A stretch of 64,000 nucleotides of DNA from Candidatus Kuenenia stuttgartensis (GCA_945891385.1 CAMDDJ010000012.1:1940-65939), one strand, 5' to 3'; shown: positions 9,138 to 47,523, counted from the first letter of the stretch. Notes: generated by a model from the letters alone, not told the origin. Numbers and translations: made by a program.

Positions 9138-9349
9138 CCTGAGGAGAGGGAGGTCGGTGCTGGCGGCATCCTCCCGGTTGACGCTTCCGTCTGGGTCGGC
9201 ATGCCTCCGTTCACGGCGTGGCCGCCCCGCCTCGGCATCCCTGGCGTGGCCTGCTCCCAGAACCCGCTCGAGGCCACCGGCAGCCCTTCCGGTCTGCTAA
9301 ACTGCCGAAGAATTGAATCACGAGTAGCGTCAGGATCTGGATCGAACCG

Positions 9350-15784: not shown

Positions 15785-15789
15785 CGGGA

Positions 15790-16620
15790 TCAGGGTTTCC
15801 GGTAGGCGAAAGTGGACCGACGCTCGAGTTCCGAGAGGTGCTCGGAGCCTCCATCGGTCGTGCCGACGAGCAAGTATCCCCCCGGCTCGAGCGCGGCAAT
15901 GAGGTTGGCGAGCGCCAGCCGCTTCGATTCACGGTCGAAATAGATCAACACGTTGCGGACCACGATCAGGCTGAAGGGCGGCTCAAGCATCGGATCGAGC
16001 AGGTTGTGCCGCCGAAACTCGCAGAGGCGGGCCGCGGGCGAGCGGACTTTCCACGTTCCAGCCGCCGGATCGGCGGTGAAATGCCGGGCCAGCCGCTCCG
16101 GCGACACCGCTTCGACGGCGCGGTGACCGTACGTCCCCGCCCGGGCGGTCGCCAGGGCTTCCCCGCAGAGGTCGGTGCCGAGCACGGACAGCCGCCAGCC
16201 GGCCAGACGCCCCGCCTGCTCCGTCAGGCACATGGCCAGCGAATAGGCCTCCTCACCGGTGCTGCAGGCGGCCGACCAGATGCGGAGGGTGCGGTCCCGA
16301 CGGCGGCCAGCCGCCGCGGCAGTCAGCTCGTCGAGGAACGGCCCGGCTACCCAGTCGAAATGGGCTGAGGTGCGGAAGAAGTGGGTCTCGTTGGTGGTGA
16401 TCGCGTCGACGAAGGCTTCGAGCTCGTCGCCCTCCTGGTCCGCCAGAAGCAGATCGTAGTAGGCGTCGAAGGAGTCGAGGCCGCGGGCACGCAGCCGCCG
16501 GCGGATCCGGTTCGAGAGCAGCATCACCTTGCCGTCCGCCGTCCGGATGCCGGTCCGTTCGTAGATGAAGGTGGCGAATCGCGCGAACTGCTCCGGGGAG
16601 AGCGTGATCAATCCGTTCAC
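15790..16620 (-). CDS. cheR: Protein-glutamate O-methyltransferase CheR
   Basis: TTNETHFFR, LRIWSAACSTGEEAYSLAM and VRNVLIYFD are CheR SAM-methyltransferase motifs. Confidence 0.9.
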   Translation of the reverse strand: MNGLITLSPEQFARFATFIYERTGIRTADGKVMLLSNRIRRRLRARGLDSFDAYYDLLLADQEGDELEAFVDAITTNETHFFRTSAHFDWVAGPFLDELTAAAAGRRRDRTLRIWSAACSTGEEAYSLAMCLTEQAGRLAGWRLSVLGTDLCGEALATARAGTYGHRAVEAVSPERLARHFTADPAAGTWKVRSPAARLCEFRRHNLLDPMLEPPFSLIVVRNVLIYFDRESKRLALANLIAALEPGGYLLVGTTDGGSEHLSELERRSTFAYRKP

Positions 16621-16657
16621 TGCGGCATCTCCTGGCGGTCGCCCGGCCGCACCACCC

Positions 16658-19255: not shown

Positions 19256-19779
19256 CGGGCAGTTGTTCCGTCGGAGGAGAGGCGGTCGGGAGCGGGCGGG
19301 CCGCCCGCGCGATGGACCCGCTCGAGCAGGGCGGGATCGAGCAGTTGATCGACGTCGAGCACGATGGCGATGTCGTCGCCGATGCGGGCGAAGCCGGCCA
19401 CGTAGTGCGGGCCTTCGGTGGTCACAGCGTCAGCGGCAGGCTTGAGTTGGTCGGCGGCGAGGCGGATCACGTGGGAAACGGCATCGACGGTGCAGCCGAC
19501 GGTGCGGCTCCCCACGACCACGACGATCGTCCGTGAGTCGGCGTCGATGGGGCGGGCGGGCAGCCCGAAGAGCAGCCGAAGGTCGATGACGGGGATGATC
19601 GTGCCGCGGAGATTGCTCACGCCGAGCACGTAGGCAGGAACCTCCGGTAGCCGGGTCACCCGGGCCGGTGTGATGATCTCCTGGATCCGCTCGATCTGAA
19701 AAAGATACTGCTGCGCGTCGAGTTCGAACCCGACGAATTGCGAGGCGGTGGTGGTATCGGGAGAGCGGACCGAAGGCAT
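19252..19779 (-). CDS. cheW: Chemotaxis coupling protein CheW
   Basis: [53 protein letters not shown] at 19779; the stop overlaps the mcp start. Confidence 0.85.
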
Positions 19780-19989
19780 GGCGAGACGATCCGGGAGCCG
19801 ATGGCATGTCGCATCGCCTGCGGGCACCGAGCGCAACCGCGACACCACTCAGGGTATAGTTCGTGGTTCCGTGCCATTCAAATCCTGGCCGGGTTTTGCT
19901 GCCGTTGGCTGGCTTTGGCGACCGGTCGTCCGTCACAATCGTCGGGGACGGCACCATCGCCCCCTCGTTTTGCCCCGGGCAGCACCCCG

Positions 19990-21039
19990 ATGCATCCAGC
20001 ACCGCTCAGAATCGCCGTGATCGACGACTCGGCGCTCTACCGCCAGATGCTGCTCAACGTGCTCGCCCGGGTGCCCGCCGCCGAGGTCGTGGGCACGGCG
20101 GCGACAGGGCTCGAGGGCGTGGAACTCGTCGCCCGCACGCGGCCCGACGTCGTCACGCTCGACGTGCAGATGCCCGGCATGGATGGGATCGAGGTGCTGC
20201 GGGAGTTTCGGCGCCGCGGTCTCGACGTCTGCACGATCATGGTCAGCAGCCTGACGGCCGAAGGCGCCCCGGCGACCGTCGCAGCCCTCATGGAGGGGGC
20301 GTTCGACTACGTGCTCAAGCCCGCGGGGAGCTTCGCCCATGAGAACCGTGAGCAGTTGCTGGTGGAACTGGCGGCGAAGATCGCCGCCATCCAGGCCACC
20401 CACTCCGCTCCCGCACCGGTCGCCCCGGAGCGGCATCGATCGGTTCCGCGTGGCCGCTATGCTGCGATCGCCATCGGCACGTCGACTGGTGGGCCCCAGG
20501 CGTTGCGGTGCCTCATCCCGGAGATGCCGCTCGATCTCTCGCTTCCCGTGTTCGTCGTCCAGCACATTCCGGCGGAGTTCTCCCGGAGCCTGGCGGCCCG
20601 CCTGGCCTCCATCTCCAAGATCCCCGTGGTGGAGGTCTCCGATGGCATGCCTGTGGTCGCGGGCAGGGTGCATCTGGCTGCGGGTGGCCGGCACCTGACC
20701 GTCCACCGGCGCGGCGATGCCGTCGTCTGCCGGCTCGACGACGGTCCGCCTCGCAAGGGGTGCCGTCCGTCCTTCGATCAACTGCTCGAGTCGCTCATCG
20801 AGGTGTACGACGGCCGGGTGATCGCCGCCGTGCTCACGGGCATGGGCCGCGACGGTCTCGAGGGCTGTCGCCAACTCGCGGCCCGCGGCGGACTGATCGT
20901 GGCCGAGGCGGCATCCTCCTGCGTCGTCTATGGCATGCCGAAGGCTGTGATCGACGCGGGGCTTGCCCACGAGGTCGCGCCGCTTCCGGAGGTCGCGACT
21001 CGCCTGACGCAGGCGGTGCGTGACCTGCCGCTCGACTGA
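19990..21039 (+). CDS. cheB: Chemotaxis response regulator protein-glutamate methylesterase CheB
   Basis: Receiver domain (RIAVIDDSALYR...DVVTLDVQMPGMDG) plus a methylesterase domain (IGTSTGGPQAL, VVQHIP, LTGMGRDG). ATG at 19990; divergent from cheW. Confidence 0.9.
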   Translation: MHPAPLRIAVIDDSALYRQMLLNVLARVPAAEVVGTAATGLEGVELVARTRPDVVTLDVQMPGMDGIEVLREFRRRGLDVCTIMVSSLTAEGAPATVAALMEGAFDYVLKPAGSFAHENREQLLVELAAKIAAIQATHSAPAPVAPERHRSVPRGRYAAIAIGTSTGGPQALRCLIPEMPLDLSLPVFVVQHIPAEFSRSLAARLASISKIPVVEVSDGMPVVAGRVHLAAGGRHLTVHRRGDAVVCRLDDGPPRKGCRPSFDQLLESLIEVYDGRVIAAVLTGMGRDGLEGCRQLAARGGLIVAEAASSCVVYGMPKAVIDAGLAHEVAPLPEVATRLTQAVRDLPLD

Positions 21040-21068
21040 ACGCCACTGCGCACGCAGGCCGACGCGGG

Positions 21069-21296
21069 CTACTCGTGCTCGCCGACGACGTGGGCTTCGC
21101 CGTCGCCGTCGAAATCGATGTGCAGCCGCATCGGATGGCAGCAGACCGGGCAGTCTTCGACGTAGTCCTGGTGGTCACCGGCCGAAATGTCGAGCGGCAC
21201 CACGATCTCCTCCCCACAGGAATCGCAGACATACGTCGCCTCCTGCTCGACCGCCAGGTGATGGGCCGCGAGTCTTTTTCGTCGGTGGTTGGCCAT
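21069..21296 (-). CDS. Small CPxCG-type zinc-ribbon protein (75 aa)
   Basis: YVCDSCGEE...DCPVCCHPM gives two Cys pairs (CxxC ... CPxCC), as in CPXCG-motif cysteine-rich proteins. ATG at 21296. Confidence 0.6.
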   Translation of the reverse strand: MANHRRKRLAAHHLAVEQEATYVCDSCGEEIVVPLDISAGDHQDYVEDCPVCCHPMRLHIDFDGDGEAHVVGEHE

Positions 21297-21468
21297 GATC
21301 GTTGCTCCCGCTGGGTGCACGGATCTCCCTCGATCCCCGCCGCGGATTCTACGCCGGAAGCCGCTCGCGGACACACTCCCGGCCTCGCGACTCCGCCTGA
21401 AGAACGGGTCAGGGTACGATAGGAACGACAGCAGCCCTCGCGAGACACTCCCGGACTGGAGTCCTTCG

Positions 21469-22248
21469 ATGAACAGCCTCCTGCGAAAGGTGCAGATTCC
21501 CCCCGGCTGCCGAGTGTCGGCAGCGAGCGTGTGCGGCGTGCTCGCGGTGGCCCATGCGTGCGCGATGGCCCAGCCGGTCGCCCCGCCCTCGAGCGAGCCG
21601 CCAGCGGCTGTGGCACCGCCGTCCGCTGATGACGCAGCCCGGAAGGCCAACCTGATGGCTGGTGAACGCTGGCGCCGGGCGATGTTCGAGTTCGACCAGT
21701 GGCTGGCCCGTCAGCCGGTCTACACGCCCGCCCAGGTGCGGAAGATCCGTGCTGACCTCGCCACTCGGATCGAGACGATGTCGTCCTTCGAGCTCGAGTA
21801 CCTCCTCGACACGCTCGAGGGAAAACTCGCCGTGCTCGAGAGCCCGGCGGCCGAAGAGGCCCGCGACTGGCTCGGTCGCTACCTTTCTGTGATGGCCGAC
21901 CGGAAGCGTCAGGAGGTTCTTGGGGAGGTGCCCAACGTCCTCGATATGTCGGCGAGCGAACTCGAGGCGGCGGTCCGCCGTGTCGAGGCCAAGCGGACCG
22001 CCGTCGAGCAGCAGCATCGCCGCTCGCTCGAGACCCGCGACACGACCGCCGCGCTCGTCGAGGCAACTCGTCAGCAGCAGGAGGCACGGGCCGCCGTCGC
22101 CGCGAGCCGGCCAGCTCCGGAGATCTACTCGCCCTACCGCGGAACGAGCGGTTCTGATCCGCCCTTCGCCGGGAGCTACGAGAGCCCCGCCGTAGTCGGT
22201 GCCAGTCCCTGGGGTTCCTACCTGCAGATTCCGATGACCGCGTTTTAG
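21469..22248 (+). CDS. Secreted hypothetical protein, paralog A of 47564-48298
   Basis: Signal-like N-terminus MNSLLRKVQIPPGCRVSAASVCGVLAVAHACAMA. Clearly alignable to the 47564-48298 product (KANLMAGERWRRAM../KADLMHSPRWQRAV..; MSSFELEYLLDTLEGKL/MSSYELEYLLDSISAKL; NVLDMSASEL/NILDMSAAQL; YSPYRG/HSPYRSG). Confidence 0.6.
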   Translation: MNSLLRKVQIPPGCRVSAASVCGVLAVAHACAMAQPVAPPSSEPPAAVAPPSADDAARKANLMAGERWRRAMFEFDQWLARQPVYTPAQVRKIRADLATRIETMSSFELEYLLDTLEGKLAVLESPAAEEARDWLGRYLSVMADRKRQEVLGEVPNVLDMSASELEAAVRRVEAKRTAVEQQHRRSLETRDTTAALVEATRQQQEARAAVAASRPAPEIYSPYRGTSGSDPPFAGSYESPAVVGASPWGSYLQIPMTAF

Positions 22249-22274
22249 TGCGGCTGAGAGGCGGTGGCTTCACC

Positions 22275-22352
22275 GGCTCGGGGGCGGCAAAAGTCGCGTC
22301 GCGGGCGAGGATACGCCCCGATTGCTCCGCGAGCGTTCGCCGACCTGAGCCT
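22275..22352 (+). repeat. Palindromic intergenic repeat, copy 2
   Basis: GGCTCGGGGGCGGCAAAAGTCGCGTCGCGGGCGAGGATACGCCCCGATTGCTCCGCGAGCGTTCGCCGACCTGAGCC. Starts 27 nt after the stop of the 21469-22248 gene, between convergent genes. Confidence 0.85.
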
Positions 22353-22384
22353 CTCCGCTTCCGTGTCGGTCTCTCAGATCCGCT

Positions 22385-24394
22385 CTAGCCGTCGGCGGGG
22401 GCGGCGTCGGGAGGCGGCTGCACCGGGCTCGGCCCGCTCATCGACAGCCGGAGCCGATACTCGGGGTGTTCCGGATCAGAGCGGAGAAACTGGGCGTAGA
22501 TCGGACCGTCGCCTGGCCATTCCCGCGTGCCGGTGAGCCGGGCCCGCACCCAGATCTCCCGCGAGCCGGCCACATGCTCGCCGATCTCGAAGGGGCCTCC
22601 GCCGAAGCCGCCCCGGTTGGCTTCGCGGGTCACGAGGTTCGTCCACCGCTCGCCATCCGGTGACACATCGAGCGCTGCCCGCGCGCCGGGGTCGTAGGGA
22701 AACGGGTCGCCCGTCGTCCAGACCGCCACGCCTGCGGAGAGGTTGGCCGCCCGGATCGCGAAGGGGGCGGTGAACCGCAGCACGATCGAGCCCTCCTGGC
22801 CGAGGACGGTCGGTCGGATGAACGTGGCGGCCCCCGCCGAGCGCTCCGTGTAACACTCGACGTCGGTCATCGAGACCACGTGCCGCTGCCAGTCGTCGTC
22901 GAACAGGTTGAAGCTGATGACCTGGTAGGGCGGCATCTGCCAGTCGATCCGGGCCGGTGCCGCCAGCCGGCGGCCCGACAGGTCGAGCGGACTGGTGGGT
23001 GTGCCAATGAGTTCGAGCTGGTAGCGGCCCTCGGTCGCCGTCACGCGGTCGAGACCGCGAACCTCCCACCGCTCGCGCCGGCCGACCACCTCGACACCGT
23101 CGAGCGGCACCGGCTGGCCATCCCGCATCAGCCGGAAGTCGGCCAGGGAAACCGCTTGGACCGGTTCCGAGAAGTCGACACTGACCCACTGCAGGGGTGT
23201 GGAGCGGGTGCTCGCGATATTCGGAATGCTCGCCGTAGGCCCGCGGCCGGGGGTGACAGAGGGGCGGCCTGCTGCGAGAAAGGCGAGGCTCAATCCGGCA
23301 GCCGTGACCACTGCGGCCACACCGGCCGCCACGACCGCGCGGTGCCGGCGGGCCCAGGCCCGGCAGACGGCCAGGACTCCGGGGCGACGGGCCCGAAGCG
23401 GAAGGTCCACGAGCAGGCGGCGGATGTCATCGGCCAGATCCCGGGCGTCGGCGTATCGATCGGCAGGCCGCTTGGCCAGGCACGTCGCGGCGATCGTCTC
23501 GAGTCCGGGGCCAAGCCTGCGGTCGGGGATGCTGAGTCGCCGCGGAATTTCCTCCCGCACGACCCGGGCTGTCTCGGTAAGCGAGCGGCCTGCCACGTCA
23601 TAGGGCAGCTGGCCGGTGAGCAGTTCATGCAGGATCACGCCCAAGGCGTAGACGTCGGTGCGAGGGTCGACGAGGCCTCCGTCGCACTGCTCAGGACTCA
23701 TGTATTGCCGCGTCCCGACGAATACGCCCGTCTCGGTAAACCCGCCCCCATCGTCCTCTGGCAGGCGGGCGACGCCGAAATCGATCACTTTCGGGTGGCC
23801 CGCGGCATCGACGAGGATGTTCGCCGGCTTGAGGTCGCGGTGCACGATGCCGAGGGAGTGGGCGGATCCGACGGCAGCGCAGATGTCGGCGAACATCGCC
23901 AGCCGCGGCCGCGGTCGCAGGCCAGCCCGGTCGCAGGCCAGCACGAGCGGCTCGCCGCCGGCCACGTATTCCATCACGAAATAGGGCGTGGCCTCGCCGT
24001 CGATGAGGGTGGAGCCCGCCGTGAACACCTGGGCGATGCCTGGATGCTGGAGGCGGCCGAGGAGTTCCGCCTCCCGCTGAAACCGCTGCCCCGCCACGGG
24101 CGATCCTCCGGTTGGTCGCATCACCTTGACCGCGACGAGCCGGTCGGGTGACCGTTGGCGGGCCAGGTAGACCCGGCCCATCCCACCCTGGGCCAGCAAT
24201 CGATCGATGCGAAACTCACCGAGGTCTCGACCCAGCAGCGCTGTCGTCTGGGATGCGTCGCGGTCGGGGCCCAGCCCGAAGTCCGTGGACTGCTGGGAGA
24301 GTTCAGCGTGGGTGGGTGCGGTATCGCCGTTCGGCCGGTCGGCGACCGGGCTCGGCGTTTCCTCAGCCGCAGCAGGCCGCCGCTCGTGATGCAT
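22385..24394 (-). CDS. Serine/threonine protein kinase with one TM helix and ~300-aa extracytoplasmic domain of unknown type
   Basis: Hanks kinase motifs: GGMGRVYLARQ, VAVKV, HRDLKPANILVD, DFG, SPEQ. TM helix AVVAAGVAAVVTAAGLSLAFLAA, then an uncharacterised C-terminal domain. Confidence 0.9.
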   Translation of the reverse strand: MHHERRPAAAEETPSPVADRPNGDTAPTHAELSQQSTDFGLGPDRDASQTTALLGRDLGEFRIDRLLAQGGMGRVYLARQRSPDRLVAVKVMRPTGGSPVAGQRFQREAELLGRLQHPGIAQVFTAGSTLIDGEATPYFVMEYVAGGEPLVLACDRAGLRPRPRLAMFADICAAVGSAHSLGIVHRDLKPANILVDAAGHPKVIDFGVARLPEDDGGGFTETGVFVGTRQYMSPEQCDGGLVDPRTDVYALGVILHELLTGQLPYDVAGRSLTETARVVREEIPRRLSIPDRRLGPGLETIAATCLAKRPADRYADARDLADDIRRLLVDLPLRARRPGVLAVCRAWARRHRAVVAAGVAAVVTAAGLSLAFLAAGRPSVTPGRGPTASIPNIASTRSTPLQWVSVDFSEPVQAVSLADFRLMRDGQPVPLDGVEVVGRRERWEVRGLDRVTATEGRYQLELIGTPTSPLDLSGRRLAAPARIDWQMPPYQVISFNLFDDDWQRHVVSMTDVECYTERSAGAATFIRPTVLGQEGSIVLRFTAPFAIRAANLSAGVAVWTTGDPFPYDPGARAALDVSPDGERWTNLVTREANRGGFGGGPFEIGEHVAGSREIWVRARLTGTREWPGDGPIYAQFLRSDPEHPEYRLRLSMSGPSPVQPPPDAAPADG

Positions 24395-24514
24395 GCACTC
24401 GCCTCTCCGCGACCGTGTGTCGGCCCCCTGGTTGTGGCTGCGGAGCCCAGGTGGGTTCGCCGTACCGAGGCATCCCGTATCATGCGGCCGCGGGGTCTTT
24501 CCCAGGCCGTCGAT

Positions 24515-25150
24515 TCACCCCAGACCGTGGCGCAGCGCCCAGACCGCCGCCTGCGTGCGATCGTTGACCGCGAGTTTCCGGAGCAGGTTCTGCACGTGTT
24601 CCTTCACGGTTTCCACGCTGATCTCGAGGGCGTCGCCGATCTCCTGATTCGAGAGGCCCATCGTGATCAGTCGCAGCACCTGCGTTTCCCGGGGCGTGAG
24701 CGGGATCCCGAGATTCTCCGGTGTCTCGCGGCGCGCCATCTGCCCGGCCATCCGGCGAAGTTGGCCGGCTCGGGTCGGGGGGTCGCCGGCCGCGGCGCCC
24801 TGCACGGCCGTCAGCACCTCGTCGCGGCCGGCCGTCTTGAGCAGGTAGTCATGCGCGCCAGCGGCGATCGCACGGGCGACGTAGGTGGGATTGTCGAAGG
24901 CGGAGAACATCACGACCCGCGACTGGGGCGCGGCCGCCCGGATGCTGCGAATCGCATCGAGGCCATCGTGGTCGCCGAATCGTACGTCGAGCAACACGAC
25001 ATCGGGCCTGAGCTTTTTCGCCTGCTTGACGGTTTCTTCGAGCGAGGTCGATTCGCCGCAGACCCTGACCCCGGATCCCTCGAACAGGCTGACGAGGCCT
25101 TTTCGAACGACGTCATGATCGTCGGCGATGAGCACGGCAGGGGACGGCAT
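24515..25150 (-). CDS. NarL/LuxR-family two-component response regulator
   Basis: Receiver domain (VLIADDHDVVRKGL...DVVLLDVRFGDHDG) plus a LuxR HTH (LTPRETQVLRLITMGLSNQEIGDALEISVETVKEHVQNLLRKL). ATG at 25150. Confidence 0.9.
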   Translation of the reverse strand: MPSPAVLIADDHDVVRKGLVSLFEGSGVRVCGESTSLEETVKQAKKLRPDVVLLDVRFGDHDGLDAIRSIRAAAPQSRVVMFSAFDNPTYVARAIAAGAHDYLLKTAGRDEVLTAVQGAAAGDPPTRAGQLRRMAGQMARRETPENLGIPLTPRETQVLRLITMGLSNQEIGDALEISVETVKEHVQNLLRKLAVNDRTQAAVWALRHGLG

Positions 25151-25206
25151 AGGCCGGAATCGTGGCCCCGTGAGGGGGGTGTTGTCAACCGCTGGGGGTC
25201 GAAAAT

Positions 25207-25914
25207 TTGGAAATGGTAAAAATTCTGGCGGCGGCAAACGGGGTTGTGGCGGTGGCCAAACCGGCGGGGCTGGCGACGCAGGCTGCCCCGGGCGTGCCGT
25301 CGGTAGAGGTCTGGGCCCGGCGGGAAATCACACATCCGTTCGAGTCTGGCTACCTGGGGGTGCCGCATCGGCTCGACCGCGCCGTATCAGGGGTGCTGCT
25401 GCTCGCGGTCACCCCGCGGGCCGCCCGCAAACTCTCCCGCCAGTTCGAGCGGCGGGAGGTGAAGAAGACCTACCTCGCCGTCGTGGCGGCTGCCCCGACG
25501 ACCGAGTCTGGGCAGCAGGGGCCGATCGAGTGGCGAGACACGATCGCCAAGGTCCCCGACGAACCACGGGCCGTGATCGTGGCTGAAGCCGGCGGCGGCC
25601 GCGAGGCCGTGACGATCGCCCAGGTGCGGGAACGGATTGACCTCGCAGGCGGGCCCGGGCTGGTGCTCGAACTCCAGCCACTCACCGGCCGGATGCACCA
25701 GCTCAGGCTGCAGGCCGCGGCGCGGGGCATGCCGGTCGTGGGAGATCTCCTGTACGGCGGCCCGTCGTGGCCCGGAGGCACCGTGGCGAACGCCGATCCG
25801 CGGCTGGCGCCGATCCTGCTGCACGCCTGGAAGATCGCCTATTCCGATCCCGATTCCGGTGACCCGGTCGAGATCACCGCCGACCTGCCCTTGCATTGGC
25901 CCCCGCTCACCTGA
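25207..25914 (+). CDS. RluA-family pseudouridine synthase
   Basis: VVAVAKPAGLATQ, catalytic motif HRLDRAVSGVLLLA, KKTYLAVV and TGRMHQLR. Confidence 0.85.
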   Translation: MEMVKILAAANGVVAVAKPAGLATQAAPGVPSVEVWARREITHPFESGYLGVPHRLDRAVSGVLLLAVTPRAARKLSRQFERREVKKTYLAVVAAAPTTESGQQGPIEWRDTIAKVPDEPRAVIVAEAGGGREAVTIAQVRERIDLAGGPGLVLELQPLTGRMHQLRLQAAARGMPVVGDLLYGGPSWPGGTVANADPRLAPILLHAWKIAYSDPDSGDPVEITADLPLHWPPLT

Positions 25915-28168
25915 CTCCGGCGGCGTGGTCGAGCCACTGCTGGATCCAGGGCGATGTCCAGGGATTCCAGGTTGGGAAGGCGACGGACACAGCCGAGAGG
26001 CCGAGGAGGATCAGCCCGATCGTCCGGCCGGTTCGGCTGCGGCCGAGCAGATCGGCCGCCGGGGTAGCGGCGGTAGCCCACAGCGGCGCCAGCCAGAAGG
26101 CCCAGCGAAACCCGGCGGTCATCCCGCCGTAGTTGCGGTCGGGCACAGGCCGGCCGAGGTAGAAGCCAATGACAATCAGCGATACCACCGCGATCGCGAC
26201 CGCGAAGCGGGCCTCACCACCGCTCTGCCGTTGGCGGGAGGCCAGCAGGGCCAAGCCGGGGAGCATCAGGAGCCAGACGGGAGTCAGCGAAAAGATTCCG
26301 TGGTGGCCGACGAGGACGTGCCAGGCGTAGGTGAGCGGGCTCGGCTCGCCGCGATCGATGCCGTGCGGATTCCTCCAGTAGCTCGTGAGCACTCGACCGT
26401 TCGGCAACACCACCGAATAGTCGTACCAATTCCGCGGGTTCCAGCTTCCAACCACCTCACCGGGACGGGCCGCCTCCGGTGTGGCCGGTTCGACGGCATG
26501 GGTCGGCGTTTGGTCGGGCTCCCGGAAGGCATAGGCCGGGGCGACCGTGCCATGCACCAGCCAGTTGGTGCCGAAAGCCGCCGCCGCCACGACCGCCGCG
26601 GCCGGGACCGCGTGCCGGAGCGTCCGGCCGAGATCTGCTCGGGCCAGCAGCACGAAGACGGCCGCCATCCAGGCGAGGGCGGGCAGTTCGAAGGCCGCTG
26701 CCAGCGCCGCCGCGAAACCGCCCGCTGCGAACGCCGTTCCGGCCCGTGCTCCCTGGCAGGTGATGCGGTATGCATACCCGGCGGCGGCGGCTGTCGCCGC
26801 CGCCGCCGGGAGGTGGTTGTTCAGGACGACGGCAAAAGTCGAGAGGAGCGTGCCGAAGGCGAGCACCGCCGCAGCCCAGAGCCGTCCCCAATCGGAGCCC
26901 CCCACCGCCTCCACCAGCCGGAAGGAGAAGAGCAGGAAGACCGCGAAGGGCACCAGACTCACCAGGATGAGCAGCATGCGACCGAGTTCGAAGGGATGGT
27001 CGCCGAGCGTCCAGCCCGTGGCCTTTGTGAGCAGCCATGCCGGACCGGCGGAGAGCACGGCCAGGAGCGGCGGCTTGCTCGAGTAGAGGTGGAGCTTGCC
27101 GTCCGGGCCCGGATGCACGACGGTGTCGATCGTGTCCCACCCCGGCTCGACGACAATCTCCTCGATCGCGAACGTGCCCCGCTCCACGAGCGCTCGCACG
27201 GTCGCCCATCGACTGCGGTCGTTGGCCGAGAGGAAGGGCCGCATCAGCCGCCGCTTCTCCAAGAACCGGGTTCTGGCCAGGTCGGGATCGGCGGCCGGGT
27301 CGGCCGCGAGGACTCGGGTCACGTGCTCGTCCGCGAGCCGCTGCTCGAGCCCGAGCCGATTGACGCTCGAGACCGAGCCGATCCGGCCGACGAGCCCGCC
27401 GATCGCCACGGCCGCCAGAATCCAATACACGCTCCGCCGCACCTGCCCCCGTGACTCCCGCGGGCGATCGGGCAGGTCGGCCAGGCGGGTGGCGATCCGG
27501 CCAAGGTCGGCGAGCCCACGGATGAAGCGGGCCGTGCCATATTTGGATCGGCCCCGGAGCCGCGGTCGGTGGTGCACCGGCATCTCGGTCACCCGCTGGC
27601 CCGACAGGTGCACGAGCGTGGGGATGAAGCGATGCATGTCGTGCTCGAGCACGAGGCCGCGGGCCGTGTCGCCGTCGATCAGTTTGAGGCCGCAGTTGTG
27701 GTCGTGGAGCCGCAGGCCCGTCACCCAGCCGACGAGCCGATTGAACACGGCCGACGGCAGCGTCTTGTGCCAGGGGTCGAGCCGCGGCGTCTTCCAGCCG
27801 TTGACCAGCCCCACGCCCCCGGGACCCGGCGTCAAGAGCGGGAGCATCCGGGGGATCTCGGCCGGGTCGTCCTGACCGTCGCCGTCGAGCATCGCCACGG
27901 CTCGGCCGCGGCACCGAGCGAACCCCGTCATCAACGCCGCCGACTTGCCCTGGCCGCGGTCATGGCGGATGCCCTGGATCCGTTCGTCTCCGGCGGCTGC
28001 GGCCTCGATCTCGGCCCACGAGCCGTCTGTCGAGCCGTCGTCGATGATGAGGAGTTCCCACACCAGGCCAGCCTCGTCGAGCCGTTCCCGGATCTCGCCC
28101 ACGAGGGGGCTGATGTTTCCCTCCTCGTCGCGAACCGGGACCACCAGAGACAGGTCGAGAGCGGTCAT
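25907..28168 (-). CDS. Fusion glycosyltransferase: N-terminal GT2 (polyprenyl-phosphate sugar synthase-like) + C-terminal polytopic GT-C (GT39/ArnT/PMT_2-like) domain
   Basis: N-terminal part: LSLVVPVRDEEGNI...LLIIDDGSTDGS...GQGKSAALMTGF...MLDGDGQDDP (GT2 DxD). Then TM helices and an ArnT/PMT_2-like loop RWATVRALVERGTFAIEE...LYSSKPPLLAVL, followed by more than 10 predicted TM helices. ATG at 28168. Confidence 0.75.
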   Translation of the reverse strand: MTALDLSLVVPVRDEEGNISPLVGEIRERLDEAGLVWELLIIDDGSTDGSWAEIEAAAAGDERIQGIRHDRGQGKSAALMTGFARCRGRAVAMLDGDGQDDPAEIPRMLPLLTPGPGGVGLVNGWKTPRLDPWHKTLPSAVFNRLVGWVTGLRLHDHNCGLKLIDGDTARGLVLEHDMHRFIPTLVHLSGQRVTEMPVHHRPRLRGRSKYGTARFIRGLADLGRIATRLADLPDRPRESRGQVRRSVYWILAAVAIGGLVGRIGSVSSVNRLGLEQRLADEHVTRVLAADPAADPDLARTRFLEKRRLMRPFLSANDRSRWATVRALVERGTFAIEEIVVEPGWDTIDTVVHPGPDGKLHLYSSKPPLLAVLSAGPAWLLTKATGWTLGDHPFELGRMLLILVSLVPFAVFLLFSFRLVEAVGGSDWGRLWAAAVLAFGTLLSTFAVVLNNHLPAAAATAAAAGYAYRITCQGARAGTAFAAGGFAAALAAAFELPALAWMAAVFVLLARADLGRTLRHAVPAAAVVAAAAFGTNWLVHGTVAPAYAFREPDQTPTHAVEPATPEAARPGEVVGSWNPRNWYDYSVVLPNGRVLTSYWRNPHGIDRGEPSPLTYAWHVLVGHHGIFSLTPVWLLMLPGLALLASRQRQSGGEARFAVAIAVVSLIVIGFYLGRPVPDRNYGGMTAGFRWAFWLAPLWATAATPAADLLGRSRTGRTIGLILLGLSAVSVAFPTWNPWTSPWIQQWLDHAAGVR

Positions 28169-28275
28169 GAGGCCGGGCAGACGGGGGACGTGGCAGGCGG
28201 GAATTTCGCCAGGATACCCCGCGGCATCGCCAGCCCGCCATGCCGTCTCCTTCCGGCCGCAGTACACTCGCTCGC

Positions 28276-29409
28276 ATGGATCGAACTCCGCGTGCCGACC
28301 AGACCCTGCCCACCATGGCCCGGCTGGTGTCGTTTGCCGTGCTCGTCGGACTGGTCGTGCTGTTCGGTCTTCTCTCGCTGCGGGTGATGGCCTCCTTTCT
28401 CCTGCCGCTCCTGCTGGCGGCCATGCTGGTCGTCGTCTTCGGTCCACTCCATCGCAGCCTCAAGGCGCGGCTGGGAGGGCCGGACTGGCTGGCGGCGGCC
28501 CTGACGACGATCCTCGTGCTTGCGATCGTGTTCGCGCCACTCGGCATCCTCGTGGCCCGCGCGGGCGGCGACGCGATGACGGTGCTCCGCCGGCCTGACG
28601 GGGTGCGGCTCGACCCGGACGTGCTCGACCGCCTGGTGAGGGTGGTCAACGAGGCGACGGGCCTGCATCTCACCGCAGACGGCGTCAACGCGGAACTGCG
28701 GACGCTCGCCGAGATGTGGCTCGGTCCGATTGCCGCCCGTGCGCCGGCCGTGATCGGAAAGATGCTGATCGGCCTGATCGTGACGGTAATCGGCTTCTTC
28801 TACTTCTTGGCCGATGGTCCGCGGATGCTCGCCGCCGTCACGCGCCTGATCCCACTCGATCCCCGGTATCAGTGGCAGCTGCTCCAGGAATTCACCGAGG
28901 TCAGTCGGGCGGTGGTGACCGCGACGCTCTTGGCGGCGATCGTGCAGGCGATCCTTGGTGGCATTGGGTACGCCGTCGTCGGCCTCGACAACGTCTTCCT
29001 GCTCACGCTGCTCACCTTCTTCATGGCGATGGTCCCGATCGTGGGAGCGGCGGCAGTCTGGGGTGTGGCCAGCCTCTACCTCCTGTTCTTCGAGCAGAAC
29101 ACCTGGGCCGCCGGCGGCCTGGCCGCCTGGGGCCTGCTCGTCGTCTCGTCGATCGACAACGTCATCAAACCGCTCGTCCTCCACGGGCAATCGAAACTCC
29201 ATCCCCTCCTGGCCCTCCTGAGCGTCCTGGGAGGCGTGGCGGCCCTCGGCCCGATCGGCATCCTGGTCGGGCCGATCGCGGTGGCGTTTCTCCAGGCCGC
29301 GCTCACGATGCTGGCCGTCGAACTCGACAGCCTGGAGGGCCCGAATCCTGCCTGCCGCGGCGAGTCGGCGGGCAGCTCCGACCCGCCTGCCGCGTCCGGA
29401 GTTGCATGA
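28276..29409 (+). CDS. AI-2E family transporter (PerM/YhhT-like permease)
   Basis: A polytopic protein with FFYFLADGPRM..., AIVQAILGGIGYAVVGL, MAMVPIVGAAAVW and IDNVIKPLVL....LHPLLALLSVLGGVAALGPIGILVGP, characteristic of the family. Confidence 0.85.
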   Translation: MDRTPRADQTLPTMARLVSFAVLVGLVVLFGLLSLRVMASFLLPLLLAAMLVVVFGPLHRSLKARLGGPDWLAAALTTILVLAIVFAPLGILVARAGGDAMTVLRRPDGVRLDPDVLDRLVRVVNEATGLHLTADGVNAELRTLAEMWLGPIAARAPAVIGKMLIGLIVTVIGFFYFLADGPRMLAAVTRLIPLDPRYQWQLLQEFTEVSRAVVTATLLAAIVQAILGGIGYAVVGLDNVFLLTLLTFFMAMVPIVGAAAVWGVASLYLLFFEQNTWAAGGLAAWGLLVVSSIDNVIKPLVLHGQSKLHPLLALLSVLGGVAALGPIGILVGPIAVAFLQAALTMLAVELDSLEGPNPACRGESAGSSDPPAASGVA

Positions 29410-29481
29410 GCGGCCACCCGGAGGTTGAAATCTGGCCTTGGAGGCCGTCGGCTCCCTGAACCCTTTCGAGGATGATGCACG

Positions 29482-29973
29482 ATGATCGTGGAATGCCTGC
29501 TCTCATTGGCCGCGGTGCTCCTGACCGGTATCGAAGCGGCCTATGTGCCCGTGGACGAGGGGGGCGGCGAGTATCTCGTGCGGGTCGAGCCCGACCTCGT
29601 CCAGTCGGGCAGCCCGTACCACTTCACCAGCGACGTGCCGGCCGACTCGCGGGACGTTCGACGCGTCCGCATTTATGTGGCCGATGCCTGGCCGCCCGCC
29701 GTGGAGCGATCGGTCGTCGAAGCCGCCAAGCGGCCCCGCCGTGTCGCTCCCGTGGCCGTCGCCTCGGCTCGCCCGGCTGAAGCGGCCCTGCTCGGAGCCG
29801 ACGCAGCGACGGGCATGGTCGCGGGAACTCCGGAGCGTCCCTGGGGCTGGCTGATCGGCAGTCTGATCGCGCTGTTCCTCTCGCTGGGAGCCAACGCCTA
29901 TCTCGGAATGCTCCTGGGCAGCATGCGACAGCGGTATCTCCGCGACGTGCAGCAGGTGCTTGTTCGCGCTTGA
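29482..29973 (+). CDS. Hypothetical membrane-anchored protein (N-terminal signal-like segment, C-terminal TM)
   Basis: 163-aa ORF. MIVECLLSLAAVLLTGIEAAYVP...; C-terminal WGWLIGSLIALFLSLGANAYLGMLLG. No family recognised. Confidence 0.45.
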   Translation: MIVECLLSLAAVLLTGIEAAYVPVDEGGGEYLVRVEPDLVQSGSPYHFTSDVPADSRDVRRVRIYVADAWPPAVERSVVEAAKRPRRVAPVAVASARPAEAALLGADAATGMVAGTPERPWGWLIGSLIALFLSLGANAYLGMLLGSMRQRYLRDVQQVLVRA

Positions 29974-29977
29974 TCCT

Positions 29978-30246
29978 CAGACCGCGACGCGCTTGTGCCG
30001 CCCCCGAGCCGGATCACGACCGTTTGACGGAAGGCGAGGGGTCGGCGAACGCTCGCGGAGCAATTGGGGCGTATCCTCGCCCGCGACGCGCTTGTGCCGC
30101 CCCCGAGCCGGACCATGACCGTTTGACGGAAGGCGAGGGGGTCGGCGAACGCTCGCGGAGCAATTGGGGCGTATCCTCGCCCGCGACGCGACTTTTGCCG
30201 CCCCCGAGCCGGATTATGAACGTTTGACCAGAGGCGAGGGTTCGCC
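29978..30246 (-). repeat. Tandem array (~2.7 units, period 99-100 bp) of the palindromic intergenic repeat, reverse orientation
   Basis: The string CGCGACGCG(C/A)CTT(G/T)TGCCGCCCCCGAGCCGG recurs at 29983, 30082 and 30182. Full cores lie at 30038-30109 and 30137-30210, joined by the conserved linker GGA(T/C)CA(C/T)GACCGTTTGACGGAAGGCGAGG. The array fills the whole gap between two convergent stop codons (29973 and 30247). Confidence 0.9.
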
Positions 30247-33200
30247 CTACAGCCGGTTACGGCGGGGACGGGCGGCGTGGCGGCGGGGTTGCTTGGGCAG
30301 GGCGGTCGACGGGCGGTGGGCAGCGGCCTGTCGCGCGGCCGCCCGGGGGCCGAAGAAATATTCCTCCGCCGGCCACAGGTCCGAGGTCGGCTCCGGTTCG
30401 ATCGCACGAACCGGCGGCGGCGCGACGGGAACCGGCTCCGGCTCGATGATCACGCCGGCCGGCTTCGCGGGTTTCGGTGCCGGCTTCAGCCGCCGGCCCC
30501 AGGTGGTGCCGGGATCGCTCAGCGAGCGGACATGGCCGCCCGCCTCGTGAAACATCTCGGCCACGTGCGCGTGGCAGGTGAGCACGAGCATCTGACGGTC
30601 GGCACCCTGCTCGGCCAGAAATTCCACCAAGACGCGGGCTGCCGAGCGAGCCCGGCTGTCGTCGAAATTGACCAGCGCGTCATCCATCACGAGCGGCAGC
30701 GTGACGTCGTGGCGACCGAGGTCGCGGACGAGCGCCAGCCGGAGAGCCAAGAAGACCTGCTCGCGGGTGCCCCGGCTGAGTCGCACCGGATTCCAGACCG
30801 AGCCGTCTCGCTCGTGGACATCGAGCCGAGCCTCGTCGACCGCGGTCGTGATCGAGTGGTAGCGGCCCTCGGTGAGCCGGGACAGCCAGCGGGAGGCCTC
30901 TCGAAGGACGGGCGGCTGGTGGTCGCGGGCGACGGCGGCGCGGGTCTCTTCGAGCAGGGCGTGGGCTCGCTCCAGCACCCGGCGACGAGCCTGGTGGGTC
31001 GCGATCTCGATTTCGAGCGCGGCAAGTTCCGCCTGGAGCGGCTCGGTGGAATGGTCACTGGCCGCCGCGGCCACCCTCGTCGCCGCGGCATCCCGCCGAC
31101 CGCGGGCTTCAGCCAGGGCCGCACGGTGCCGGGCCGTGACGGCGGTGGCCTCGGTCAGCCGGTCGGCCAGCGGCAGGGCCGCTGCGTCGGCAAGCCACTG
31201 CTCCACGTCGGCGGGTTCGGACGTGCGTCGGCGGGCGTCGAGCCAGGCGAGTTCGGCGGCCTCGGCCTCCGTCTTCGTGGCCTCATACTCGGGACGCCGA
31301 TCGACCTTGGCGAGGAAGTCTTCGGCCGTGGTCACGCCCCAGCGTGCGTAGAACTCGCCTACGGCCCGCTCGGCCACCTTGACCTGGCGAAGGGCCGAGC
31401 GGTGCCGGCGGCGAGCCGACTCGAGCCGCCGGGTGAGCGACTGCCGGCGACGGACGACGGCCCGGTCGGCGTCGAGTCGTTCCCGAAGCAGTCGCAGGTG
31501 GTCCAGCGGCGTCGTCTCCGGTACGAGTTCGCACTCCACCAGCAGTTCGTCGATCCGGCGACCCGCCGCCGCCAATTCCTCCCGCTTGTGCCGGGCCTCT
31601 TCAGAAAGCCGTCGTCGGTCGTCGTCGAGGGTCAGGAGGGTGTGTCGATGCGACGCGATCTGCCGAACTTCCCGCGGAGTGAGGCTGGGAGGCAGACCGC
31701 GGTGTTCGAGCGCTTTCCGCCAGCGCGCCCGAGCGGCTGTCCGATCTTCGGTGGCCCGCGCGAGGGTCTGTTCAGCGTCCGCCACCCGGCCGGCCAGGAT
31801 GTGGATCGAGCCTTCGCGGGATGCGAGCGACTCCAGCCGGTCCAATTCGGCCTGAGCCGCAGCCAGCCTTCGGTCGAGACCGAGTCCGGCGTCGATGCCG
31901 AGCCGGACGTCGAGCGCGGCGATATCGGCCGCCAGTTCGTCGCGTCTGGTGCGGGCCGCGTCGCACTGCCGCCGGGCGGCCTCGAGACTCGCCGACGCGT
32001 TGCGATCGAGCGACCAGGTCGTCACCGAGGCCACGCCCGCCCCCGCCAGGCCGAGGGCCGCCATGGCGTAGGCCATCGCGCCGGTCACCTCCCGCGGCAA
32101 GAGCGAGCCGGAGAGCAGCATCCCGGTGCCGATCACGAACAAGGCTCCGAGGCCCACGAGCCACGGGATGGGAATCAGCTGGGCTTCCATGTGTTCGGCC
32201 ATGTCCTGCTCGAGCCGTGCGACGGTGCGGTCGGCTTCGGTGAGCTGTTCACCGGCGGTCGCCCGCTTGCGGAGCATCGCCGACCGCTCGGCGGCCTGCG
32301 TGATCGCATCGTGGATCGTCACCCCGCCGAGGCTGCGGCCGGAGGAATCGACCGAGCCCTTGGCGTCGGCCAGCGACCGTTTGGCGACCTTCAGGTCTTT
32401 CAGGGCGGCTGACCGGGCTCGGCTGGCCCGGCTCCAGTCGCGGGCCCGCTTGCGAAGCGGCCCGAACGAAAGGGCGAAGCCTTCCGGCAGCAGGACGTCG
32501 GGGAGGGTGTCGAGTTCGGCGTCGGTCGGCAGCGTCACTGGGACGAGCCGCGACAAGCCTGCGATCCCCACCTGTTCGCCGAACCGTCTGGCTGCCAGGC
32601 GGGCGTGGCTCTCGGCCCGGGCTACGTCGGCGGCCAGTCGCTCGAGCCGCGGCTCTTCCTCGGCGAGGGCCGAGACGGCCGCCCGCTTCGACCAGACGGT
32701 CGACTCCGCCGGCAGATCGCGAAGCTGCCGGGCCACGCGGCTGCGGGTCTTCTTTCGGCCCCGGGCGATCCGCTCCGCCCGCTTGAGTCGGCGGGCAGCG
32801 GAACGCCAGGCATCCCGGTCGGCATGCACCAGCGGCGCTGATTCGAGCTTCACCAACCGCGCGGAGGTGTCTTTCCAGGCGAGATAGAAGGGCTCGATCG
32901 CGATCACATGCCGTACGACCTTCTCGGCATGCTCGGCCCGCTCGATGCGGCCACCGAGGGCGGCGAGTTCTGCGTCCAAGTGGGTGAGTTCAGTCCAGAG
33001 CGAGCCGGTCACGACCGCCGGGCTGCCCGCCGCGGCGAGCTGGTCGAGCACGTCGCCCCGGCGGGCCTTGAGCGCCGTGAGCGGAGAGATCTCCGGATCG
33101 ACCGAATCGAGGCGTTCGATCGCCGTCCGAATCCGGCCGAGCACCCGGCTCACCTGCGACCGATCGAGGCCGCTGGCAAGCTCGTAGAGCCGGCTGCCGC

Positions 33201-33711
33201 AGCCTTCCGGTTCGAGGGTTCGGAGTTCGTGGAGTTCGTCGAGGCCGAAGGCCATCACGCTCGTGAAGGTGACCTCGTCGATCTCGCCGACCAGGTCCTG
33301 GAGGTAGTAGCGGTGCCGCGGCCCCGCCTCGGCTGCCCCGGGCAACGGCGCGACCGCTGAGATCTCGATCAGGTCGCCATGATCGCCGCCGAGGCCGACG
33401 ATGCCGTCCGCGTAGGTTTCCTGCGAGAGCTCCGCCAGGTGCGGGCCCTCGTGCCGCCGCTCGATCGTGATCGCCGTCCGCTCGGGCGGAATCCGCACGA
33501 GCAACCGGCCGGCGCACGGCCGCCGGGGATCGAGCACGCCCCGCCGAAATTGTCCTTCGAAGCCGAAGAAGACCGCCCGCACGAACTCGAGGAGCGTCGT
33601 TTTGCCGGTTTCATTGGTGCCGTGAAGCACCTGCACACCGGGGCCGAGCCGATCGACCACAACCCGGTCGAGGCCGCCGAAACGTTCCACGTCGATGCGT
33701 TCGATGTACAT
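30247..33711 (-). CDS. SMC/Rad50-like AAA ATPase of the YhaN/SbcC type with a central transmembrane hairpin
   Basis: N-terminal Walker A (VLHGTNETGKTTLLEFVRAVFFG), very long Arg/Ala/Glu-rich coiled-coil regions and a C-terminal Walker B/D-loop (LPLVMDDALVNFDDSRA). Mid-protein hydrophobic pair IPIPWLVGLGALFVIGTGMLLSGSLL ... AMAYAMAALGLAGAGVASVTTW (~nt 32000-32180). Confidence 0.75.
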   Translation of the reverse strand: MYIERIDVERFGGLDRVVVDRLGPGVQVLHGTNETGKTTLLEFVRAVFFGFEGQFRRGVLDPRRPCAGRLLVRIPPERTAITIERRHEGPHLAELSQETYADGIVGLGGDHGDLIEISAVAPLPGAAEAGPRHRYYLQDLVGEIDEVTFTSVMAFGLDELHELRTLEPEGCGSRLYELASGLDRSQVSRVLGRIRTAIERLDSVDPEISPLTALKARRGDVLDQLAAAGSPAVVTGSLWTELTHLDAELAALGGRIERAEHAEKVVRHVIAIEPFYLAWKDTSARLVKLESAPLVHADRDAWRSAARRLKRAERIARGRKKTRSRVARQLRDLPAESTVWSKRAAVSALAEEEPRLERLAADVARAESHARLAARRFGEQVGIAGLSRLVPVTLPTDAELDTLPDVLLPEGFALSFGPLRKRARDWSRASRARSAALKDLKVAKRSLADAKGSVDSSGRSLGGVTIHDAITQAAERSAMLRKRATAGEQLTEADRTVARLEQDMAEHMEAQLIPIPWLVGLGALFVIGTGMLLSGSLLPREVTGAMAYAMAALGLAGAGVASVTTWSLDRNASASLEAARRQCDAARTRRDELAADIAALDVRLGIDAGLGLDRRLAAAQAELDRLESLASREGSIHILAGRVADAEQTLARATEDRTAARARWRKALEHRGLPPSLTPREVRQIASHRHTLLTLDDDRRRLSEEARHKREELAAAGRRIDELLVECELVPETTPLDHLRLLRERLDADRAVVRRRQSLTRRLESARRRHRSALRQVKVAERAVGEFYARWGVTTAEDFLAKVDRRPEYEATKTEAEAAELAWLDARRRTSEPADVEQWLADAAALPLADRLTEATAVTARHRAALAEARGRRDAAATRVAAAASDHSTEPLQAELAALEIEIATHQARRRVLERAHALLEETRAAVARDHQPPVLREASRWLSRLTEGRYHSITTAVDEARLDVHERDGSVWNPVRLSRGTREQVFLALRLALVRDLGRHDVTLPLVMDDALVNFDDSRARSAARVLVEFLAEQGADRQMLVLTCHAHVAEMFHEAGGHVRSLSDPGTTWGRRLKPAPKPAKPAGVIIEPEPVPVAPPPVRAIEPEPTSDLWPAEEYFFGPRAAARQAAAHRPSTALPKQPRRHAARPRRNRL

Positions 33712-47442: not shown

Positions 47443-47523
47443 GGCTCGGGGGAGGCAAAAGTCGCGTCGCGGGCGAGGATACGCCCCAATTGCTCCGCGA
47501 GCGTTCGCCGACCCCCTCGCCTT
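47443..47523 (+). repeat. Palindromic intergenic repeat, copy 4
   Basis: GGCTCGGGGGAGGCAAAAGTCGCGTCGCGGGCGAGGATACGCCCCAATTGCTCCGCGAGCGTTCGCCGACCCCCTCGCC, between convergent stops at 47409 and 47564. Confidence 0.85.

Follow-up and report, generated by a model that had tools for sequence, protein, structure and literature searches.

The closest described relatives of the repeat analyzed here are the TA-ended bacterial MITEs, the REP/REPIN sequences with the BIMEs, and the hairpins of class 3 TnpA-Y1 genes. The TA-ended MITEs that have been reviewed include ERIC/IRU, Correia (NEMIS), and RUP, and RUP has been proposed to be moved by IS630-Spn1 (PMC2229807). In Pseudomonas fluorescens, REPINs have been seen to form tandem clusters that take in the flanking sequence (PMC3116915). 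Class 3 TnpA-Y1 occurs mainly in Planctomycetes; on the flanks of its genes there are hairpins whose consensus is CnGAGCCG..., with CnGA as the 5' foot (Quentin et al. 2018, PMC6006769), and these hairpins have also been reported at high copy number in some hosts (PMC6006769). The locus studied here is an array with a period of about 100 bp that lies between two convergent genes in a window of 64,000 nucleotides (the whole stretch of DNA that was analyzed). With a probability of roughly 0.55, we consider this array to be the product of local amplification of one member of a MITE-like family, whose small palindromic elements are mobile and non-coding and occur in GC-rich freshwater Planctomycetota. 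The family is an undescribed addition to the known class of small palindromic mobile repeats.

Like the TA-ended MITEs, the element is 100-180 bp in size, non-coding, and TA-ended in its terminal inverted repeats, with dispersed intergenic copies near gene ends; it is also conserved across related genera, and the whole of it makes one long hairpin when transcribed. Unlike ERIC, Correia, and RUP, which are A+T-rich, it has about 70% G+C, it shares no sequence similarity with them, and no partner IS was found for it. Its ends, unlike theirs, sit on and rebuild TAG stops, and its inner hairpin can be amplified alone, giving arrays of direct tandem units, and is found in copies lacking the outer repeats as well. 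In common with REP/REPIN sequences and BIMEs, these are high-copy extragenic palindromes at gene 3' ends whose hairpin is kept by compensatory change and, as with REPINs, they form ordered tandem clusters of near-identical units plus flanking sequence (PMC3116915) and break short-read assemblies. On the other hand, REP/REPIN sequences consist of two REPs of 20-40 nt, whereas the present unit is one 79-nt hairpin with no 5' GT[AG]G, its long forms are TA-ended, and no RAYT was found in the available DNA around the copies; in contrast to BIMEs, the array units are all in direct orientation and have one linker type.

A first-pass annotation of the window had described a 2.7-unit tandem array exactly filling the gap between the convergent genes, and this array is real: TRF places it at 29973-30240 with a period of 100, 92% matches, and a score of 448, and the string said to recur in it does so, starting at 29983, 30082, and 30182. 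Its place between the genes stands as well, except that the left edge lies directly behind the TGA stop (29971-29973) of the upstream ORF (29482-29973), which encodes a 163-aa protein, and not about 5 nt away from it. The right edge is, as proposed, the stop of the 30247-33711 gene, the array ending in CTA (30247-30249), which is the TAG stop of that minus-strand gene. The division of each unit into a core of about 79 bp and a linker of about 20 bp holds for the full units (77 and 79 nt, with linkers of 22 nt), but the true unit is larger than 79 nt, including a conserved 3' tail and, in the copy at 22248-22385, outer inverted repeats as well (Table 1). In full unit 1 (30033-30109), the left end GGCGAGGGG pairs as tandem G.A with the right end CGAGCC. 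With up to 1 mismatch allowed, the 14-mer GCCGCCCCCGAGCC occurs 8 times in the window, where 0.56 would be expected, and none of 100 shuffles gave as many. The left end of the array is without a TA or a terminal repeat, and this counts against the MITE reading.

Table 1. Features of the array and of the other copies in the window (positions counted from the first letter of the window)
Feature	Position	Strand	Description
5'-truncated first unit	29974-30010	+	begins in apical loop (ATCCTC); right arm CGCGACGCGCTTGTGCCGCCCCCGAGCC
Tail/linker 1	30011-30032	+	GGATCACGACCGTTTGACGGAA, 22 nt
Full hairpin unit 1	30033-30109	+	77 nt; CM 78 bits
Tail/linker 2	30110-30131	+	GGACCATGACCGTTTGACGGAA, 22 nt
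Full hairpin unit 2	30132-30210	+	79 nt; CM 104 bits
Tail/linker 3	30211-30232	+	GGATTATGAACGTTTGACCAGA, 22 nt
Fourth-unit start	30233-30240	+	first 8 nt, GGCGAGGG
TTCGCC-CTA	30241-30249	+	resembles family right terminal repeat ...GCGCTC-TA
Core 3556-3634	3507-3634	-	tail 3534-3555 (GACGAACTTCGTTTGACCGGGA); first 27 nt of second unit at 3507-3533
Degenerate copy	9093-9160	+	right half 9093-9121, tail 9122-9142, left half 9143-9160
Long-form copy 22248-22385	22246-22387	-	core 22275-22351; TA at 22246-47 and 22386-87
Single copy, GGCGAG variant	47443-47521	-	between convergent genes 46417-47409(+) and 47564-48298(-)
Core 59873-59951 plus short tail 59857-59872	59857-59951	-	tail GGCGT+GATGCGATCGA resembles terminal repeat

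Single copies of the same element had been claimed at four other loci; all four are there, and a sixth, degenerate locus (9093-9160) had escaped notice. The four further full copies, detected by blastn and the covariance model, share 95-99% identity and are without exception on the minus strand; the covariance model gives a total of 6 matches in the window. The copy at 3507-3634 follows the TGA stop of gene 3672-4667(-) at a distance of 37 nt, the core at 59873-59951 is separated by 3 nt from the TAG stop of gene 59955-60863(-), and one MAG locus (L059) carries a copy within the same flanks as the window copy at 47443-47521. The long-form copy at 22248-22385 has outer inverted repeats (TAGAGCGGATCTGAGAG at 22371-22387 and CTCTCAGCCGCACTA at 22246-22260) and folds end to end, and both of the TAs bordering it belong to TAG stops of the convergent genes 21289-22248(+) and 22385-24394(-). 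The degenerate copy encodes the last ~14 codons and the TGA stop (9135-9137) of gene 6882-9137, and this TGA falls within the tail motif GTTGAC. The perfect 10-nt ends GGCTCGGGGG/CCCCCGAGCC that had been ascribed to the core are present in the copies at 3556-3634 and 59873-59951; the end of the copy at 22275-22351 reads GGCTCAGG, and that of the array units and of the copy at 47443-47521 reads GGCGAGGGG(G), which leads to two G.A mismatches.

An exact 20-mer from the core centre is present at no fewer than 66 loci in at least 10 MAGs among species-representative genomes, and an exact 20-mer from the right arm in at least 120 metagenome contigs, lake metagenomes included; because the loci were picked by these 20-mers, conservation of the centre segment in the genome set and of the right-arm segment in the metagenome set is by construction. 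The covariance model built from 72 copies (R1) has 101 and 109 matches in the two locus sets, that is, more than 200 in ~1.4 Mb of loci. These dispersed copies, together with the covariation described below, support the proposal of a genome-wide REP/BIME-like or MITE-like family or structured RNA motif. As to REP/BIME versus MITE, the full-length form shows MITE hallmarks, whereas the 5' GT[AG]G and a BIME-like alternation were not seen. All loci have 60-74% G+C (the window, 69%), for which reason the MAG labels "Candidatus Kuenenia" and "Chitinophagaceae" are taken as mislabels; further host MAGs are labelled Planctomycetota or Pirellulales, and the window carries the planctomycete markers MCH and DUF1571 amid ordinary housekeeping and chemotaxis genes. 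The core is ~92% identical across genomes whose orthologous proteins share 46-86% identity. The family was also thought to be undescribed, and no match to a known family was found. Rfam gave none at the gathering score for the window, at E<=10 for 29900-30320, or at E<=1 for three long-form loci; a plasmid collection searched with the long-form copy gave no match; and the literature searched on planctomycete REP, MITE, and REPIN sequences yielded general surveys only, none describing the family.

Many members are rods of 158-182 nt with TA-ended terminal inverted repeats of 10-15 nt, mostly in CTAG. The long form is laid out as C-TA-GAGCGCATC, ~40 nt, the core, GG(C/T)GATACAC..., and GATGCGCTC-TA-G. 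There are 13 TAGAGCGCAT(C)/(G)ATGCGCTCTA end pairs lying 158-182 nt apart, 12 of which match the core probe, and the thirteenth (L163) reads as a diverged opposite-strand copy. Both ends were found in 34 of the 153 non-redundant clusters and one end in 48, compared with 1.1% and 16% at random positions. Outside the TA, C prevails on the left and G on the right, and because these outside bases are not complementary in every copy, the TA marks the boundary of the element. The long form folds end to end at -85 kcal/mol (z = -4.2) and, as in MITEs, the units are small (79-182 nt) and non-coding. In genomes of the window type (MAGs CAYVNX and JBJOHE and the window itself), most copies are short and inverted repeats in their flanks are at chance level; movement of the short form is unexplained by a mechanism based on terminal repeats, which counts against the MITE reading. 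A search of ~1.4 Mb of window and loci for an autonomous IS with these ends gave only chance-level pairs 0.4-3.5 kb apart.

Presence and absence at orthologous intergenic sites, another MITE trait, was observed. For example, the 22248-22385 site is empty in two relatives with an 86%-identical marker protein (L201/L202), in which the same genes are 15 nt apart and the site reads TTT-TGA-15 nt-TCA, with the gene ends at the same codon positions as in the window. The comparison of window positions 22246-22387 with this empty site would fit a TA duplication, the relative being diverged, with TGA stops, and not isogenic. The array site is empty in L071-73, where the same convergent pair, with a 90%-identical upstream protein, has a 123-nt spacer that in L071 holds an ordinary small hairpin and then CCCTTTCG; L077-79 are likewise without the element, and ~8 more orthologous pairs differ in size by 120-200 nt. 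Copies in L035 and L048 lie downstream of the same gene (86% DNA identity) in opposite orientation and at different distances, and thus point to independent insertions. Differences in copy number between assemblies (L074/75 versus L076) are unreliable because the array is collapsed in L067, a locus with the identical 163-aa protein and 100%-identical flanks whose array reads half-unit, tail, half-unit. Many copies sit at contig ends, and two of the three public short-read contigs encoding the 163-aa protein end 80-135 nt past the gene, inside the array; the third (L067) crosses the collapsed array and ends ~200 nt past the gene.

The copies are almost wholly intergenic, in agreement with the first-pass annotation, and no copy is internal to a gene called with confidence, genes being called by a third-position G+C heuristic; where copies seem to overlap an ORF, they do so at its 5' end, which amounts to start-codon over-extension by the caller, 9093-9142 being the exception. 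Among the 55 classifiable clusters of the first locus set, the context is convergent in 24, tandem in 24, and divergent in 7, which differs (chi-square P = 1e-5) from background values of 18.5% convergent, 62% tandem, and 19% divergent. The distance from stop to core has a sharp peak on each side, with 27 of 71 distances at 48-51 nt and 18 of 57 at 25-28 nt; both peaks equal the outer-arm lengths, so that the flanking stop is the TAG/CTA in which the element terminates. Stops beside copies are TAG in 62 of 128 cases versus 29% in the background (P = 6e-6), and in the window 4 of the 8 TAG stops touch a copy compared with 2 of the 34 TGA stops (P = 0.008). The window holds 6 CTAG against 182 expected (30-fold depleted) and 468 TA against 1519 (3-fold). 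With respect to the gene reading into the copy, the larger set gave 46 sense-only and 32 antisense-only cases (P = 0.14), and the sense bias of an early count by eye (17:6) was dropped.

The mechanism and the function of the element are matters that we infer. The element would be moved in trans by a DDE transposase of the kind found in IS630/Tc1-mariner, with duplication of the TA. TA ends and a preference for CTAG are traits of IS630/Tc1-mariner and give a lead in this direction. Because TA, and especially CTAG, is extremely rare in the genome, TAG stops would be among the few targets available; and because the first base of the element is G and the last is C, an insertion at the TA within a TAG would restore TAG at the left border and CTA at the right one. 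With the stop codon rebuilt on either strand, insertions into TAG would be harmless or neutral, and this would explain how single copies and the array come to fill gaps between convergent genes exactly. The hairpin with its 22-nt tail would then be duplicated in tandem in place, by slippage or unequal exchange, which would account for the 100-bp period, the alike linkers within an array, and the truncated units at both ends.

At ~10 loci in two MAGs there are arrays with a period of 96-103. Their linkers are near-identical within an array and differ between arrays, with a loose common pattern (GGYG...CA...GTTGAC..nGA), and this likeness within but not between arrays argues for growth by local duplication and not by repeated independent insertion. 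The arrays usually open with a 5'-truncated unit and close with a 3'-truncated unit, abutting the stops of the neighbouring genes. In "single" copies, the right flank often has a complete tail of the linker type and then the degenerate beginning of a next unit, so that the repeating unit is the hairpin plus the tail, ~100 nt in all. A CRISPR was rejected, given a repeat of 79 nt, "spacers" of 22 nt that are near-identical to each other, and dispersed single copies, and the integron attC and BIME readings were ruled out on anatomy. The TTGAC of the tail was also considered as a promoter and discarded, there being no properly spaced -10-like box and no promoter-like site in 21000-31000.

The core of 79 nt is a conserved hairpin with three helices and constitutes the inner part of the larger dispersed element. 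Structure-preserving covariation, the criterion proposed at the outset for a structured motif, is strong, 19 of the 30 pairs in the 101-match alignment having double changes. In the 72-copy alignment, 92.9% of cells pair and 9 cells carry a double change, against 1.8 +/- 1.3 after shuffling; in the 101-match alignment, which was fitted to the model structure and in which counts are of sequences and not of events, there are 99 such cells against 29.6 +/- 3.2 after shuffling (0 of 500 shuffles reach 99), and controls with slid partners gave 3-10. Subfamily structure inflates counts of covarying cells, and palindromes may stay complementary without RNA function. A perfect-ended copy folds at -58 kcal/mol (z = -5.1), and copies with the left end GGCGAG for GGCTCG fold worse (z = -1.9 for array unit 1, -2.7 for the copy at 47443-47521). 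In the metagenome set, which is anchored on the right arm, the arms are conserved and the centre is variable with the fold kept; the apical stem-loop may read GGGGCG-TATCCT-CGCCC, GGGCCG-CCG-CGGCCC, GTGGCCGC-T-GCGGCCAC, or ATGGCCG-CTT-CGGCCAT, among others, and an optional module of 21-27 nt contains a CCGC-GAA-GCGG mini-hairpin with the compensatory variants TTGC-GAC-GCAA and GTCGC-AAA-GCGAC. Two sites alternate between Watson-Crick pairing and tandem G.A in the context CGAG/CGAG, in which tandem G.A would be stable. The switch at the outer end is between GGCTCG and GGCGAG, facing CGAGCC, and the one in the inner stem is between CGCG/CGCG and CGAG/CGAG, both sides changing together; the pair neighbouring the switch site goes from G-C to C-G in 25 of 78 sequences. 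Non-canonical pairs favour the "top" strand, with 274 G.A/A.G against 0 C.T/T.C and 99 G.T against 16 A.C; these, too, are counts of sequences, and a few fixed positions dominate the asymmetry. An interior hairpin conserved by covariation and a one-strand bias are not needed by a cut-and-paste MITE.

That no transposase or partner was found in the available DNA, the short forms, and the strand-specific constraint on the hairpin make a REP-like single-strand mechanism a serious rival, all the more so given the CnGA-footed hairpins beside planctomycetal class 3 HUH-Y1 genes (PMC6006769). The repeat would then be a REP/REPIN-type element moved as single-stranded DNA by an HUH-Y1 enzyme (RAYT or class 3 TnpA-Y1), which we judge to be unlikely. 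The enzyme would recognise the folded hairpin together with a short 5' foot and insert beside nGA; as nGA is also the end of the tail, one insertion after another would produce head-to-tail arrays with a fixed period of 100 nt. Compensatory changes that keep the hairpin paired, the preference for one strand (G.A 274 versus C.T 0, G.T 99 versus A.C 16), the short forms without outer inverted repeats, and the existence of tandem REPIN clusters in other bacteria (PMC3116915) are all in line with such movement, and at the foot the A at -1 is conserved (1.9 bits), -2 and -3 are G/A, and array tails end in (C/G)nGA. However, there is no GT[AG]G, the foot being (C/G)(G/C)(G/A)A before a 79-nt hairpin, and CnGA proper, as read from the foot columns of the alignment, is present in only ~1/5 of copies. 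The right end of the element, CCGAGCCGG, recalls the class 3 hairpin consensus CnGAGCCG, but this likeness ends at 8-9 nt. With the class 3 hairpins the repeat further shares a host among the Planctomycetes, a short purine-ending foot (CnGA, in part of the copies) before a G+C-rich hairpin, and the string C-n-G-A-G-C-C-G; the published ones (GCCGCGACCGTnAGGGAGCGG), on the other hand, are 26-30 nt long with a different stem and loop, the matching string here is the outer end of the right arm and not a foot before its own hairpin, and no class 3 TnpA-Y1 gene was seen near the copies. Single-strand movement also leaves the TA-ended terminal repeats of the long forms and their stop-codon register unexplained. 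For Y1/RAYT proteins, phmmer gave nothing better than E = 0.1 among six-frame ORFs of 474 kb and 822 kb (~8 kb per copy), the queries being E. coli RayT (L070:1638-2135) and two consensus probes, a set with low sensitivity for class 3. Seven ORFs with an HuH...Y...Q pattern were read by eye as large metabolic enzymes.

Another explanation is that the hairpin is primarily a strand-specific RNA module used by the host at gene 3' ends (a putative U-tract-independent terminator, 3'-end stabiliser, or protein-binding RNA), with the repeats held by selection and transposition serving only for spread; this seems to us distinctly unlikely. It would account for the double changes (19 of 30 pairs, and 99 cells versus 29.6 +/- 3.2 shuffled), for an apical hairpin swapped for other sequences that still pair, for the optional mini-hairpin with its compensatory variants, and for a core that is ~92% identical where orthologous proteins are 46-86% identical. 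Copies always adjoin gene 3' ends, the empty site in L071 has an ordinary small hairpin and CCCTTTCG in their place, and the genome shows no excess of canonical terminators. Against this, the orientation bias is not significant (46 versus 32, P = 0.14), copies come and go between close relatives, there is no Rfam match, and the copies have no U run longer than 4 and are not flagged by a terminator scan; moreover, palindromes, as noted, can stay complementary without RNA function, and subfamily structure inflates the number of covarying cells. An intrinsic terminator in the classical sense was rejected, the only candidate U tract being CUUUUG, within the 3' arm, and the scan of 21000-31000 flagging no copy. 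A DNA architectural site in the manner of BIMEs, in which gyrase, IHF, or some other nucleoid protein would bind the clustered palindromes between convergent units, we hold to be very improbable: copies are enriched between convergent genes, and the two CGAG/CGAG sites and the tail motif (G)TTGAC may be candidate protein sites, but neither alternating orientation nor BIME-type linker motifs are present, and mismatches that favour one strand speak for a fold of single strands and not for a site in duplex DNA.

Beyond its part in the element, the conserved inner hairpin may have become a strand-specific structured module that the host uses at gene ends, a candidate U-tract-independent and possibly bidirectional terminator or 3'-end protector for GC-rich planctomycetes, in which canonical terminators are lacking, that would be spread by transposition and dosed by tandem amplification; we put this forward tentatively and think it rather unlikely. 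The features of the hairpin in that case would be the two tandem G.A motifs in their CGAG/CGAG context, a fixed G.U pair, the swappable apical stem-loop, and the optional GNA-triloop mini-hairpin. Its covariation and its preference for one strand single it out as a candidate for the recruitment of an element to transcript 3'-end formation without classical terminators. In a genome of 69% G+C, TA and CTAG are scarce enough for stop codons to serve as landing pads, and an element that begins with G and ends with C could occupy a TAG without harm to either neighbour gene. The repeats are also abundant enough to break and collapse short-read assemblies, and so affect the quality of MAGs. Families of such repeats have been studied thoroughly in proteobacteria and scarcely at all in Planctomycetota, hosts that are mostly uncultured.

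Contigs of 63-72% G+C that carry the planctomycete repeat, a palindromic element with a 79-nt hairpin core and a ~22-nt tail, sit in MAGs titled "Candidatus Kuenenia" or "Chitinophagaceae" (loci L001-L066; records CAYVNX01, CAZONY01, CAMDDA01, CAMCYH01, CAMCPF01, JAYQOK01, and CAYZFV01), and these titles are probably wrong, or the bins contaminated. The 163-aa protein encoded beside the tandem array has more than 500 homologues, of which the few with an organism name all come from Planctomycetota/Pirellulales MAGs. Within the window, positions 13107-21039 hold chemotaxis genes (two CheW, CheR, CheB, an MCP, and response regulators), and genes for polyphosphate kinase, MraW, RsgA, and methenyl-H4MPT cyclohydrolase (MCH) lie outside this interval; an Rfam scan of the window gave no matches beyond the RNase P RNA and the tRNA.

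Features of the window and of related loci
Feature	Location	Strand	Remark
Bacterial RNase P RNA class A	window 2294-2700	+	Rfam match, 269 bits
tRNA	window 12100-12173	+	Rfam match
CheB methylesterase	window 19990-21039		position from comparison with L067
163-aa protein gene	window 29482-29973	+	adjoins array; no Pfam match
1154-aa protein gene	window 30247-33711	-	adjoins array; orthologues with weak SMC_N/AAA_27 matches
Longer-period tandem duplication	L059 5900-6260		period 200 nt
Longer-period tandem duplication	L036 2820-3043		period 136 nt
Longer-period tandem duplication	L098 11859-12078		period 136 nt

Across the whole window, TA occurs 468 times against 1519 expected, CTAG 6 times against ~182, and TTAA once against 36, and by our own gene calls the stop codons comprise 34 TGA, 8 TAG, and a single TAA. 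One of the TGA stops, that of gene 6882-9137 (9135-9137), is itself repeat-encoded and lies within the tail motif GTTGAC. At its 3' end this gene runs into a degenerate element copy at 9093-9160, in which a right half is followed by the tail and then by a left half, and the C-terminal ~14 residues of the gene product (...GDTTFAAPESVHPS*) are likewise encoded by this copy.

The element core also varies: two loci (L125 7303-7407 and L155 6975-7058) are near-identical apart from a 21-nt insertion (AATCTGAAAGACCGCGAAGCG), which forms an extra GAA-triloop mini-hairpin on the 3' side of the core, a module found in ~20 other copies with compensatory stem variants.

The array at window 29974-30249 is shorter by exactly two units in the short-read contig L067 (10493-10575), where the 163-aa protein and the flanks are 100% identical to those of the window and the array linker differs by one base; this difference may reflect either assembly collapse or true copy-number variation. 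The unit of the longer-period duplications consists of the element plus 57-120 nt of flanking DNA, which in L059 includes a second perfect 12-bp hairpin unrelated to the element (GTGGACAAAGCC...GGCTTTGTCCAC). In a further locus, L174 (~2640-2760), two directly adjoining head-to-tail elements have one CTAG in common (...GCGAC-CTAG-CCCGCAATCGG...), an arrangement that would be expected if the terminal TA of one element had served as the insertion site for the other.
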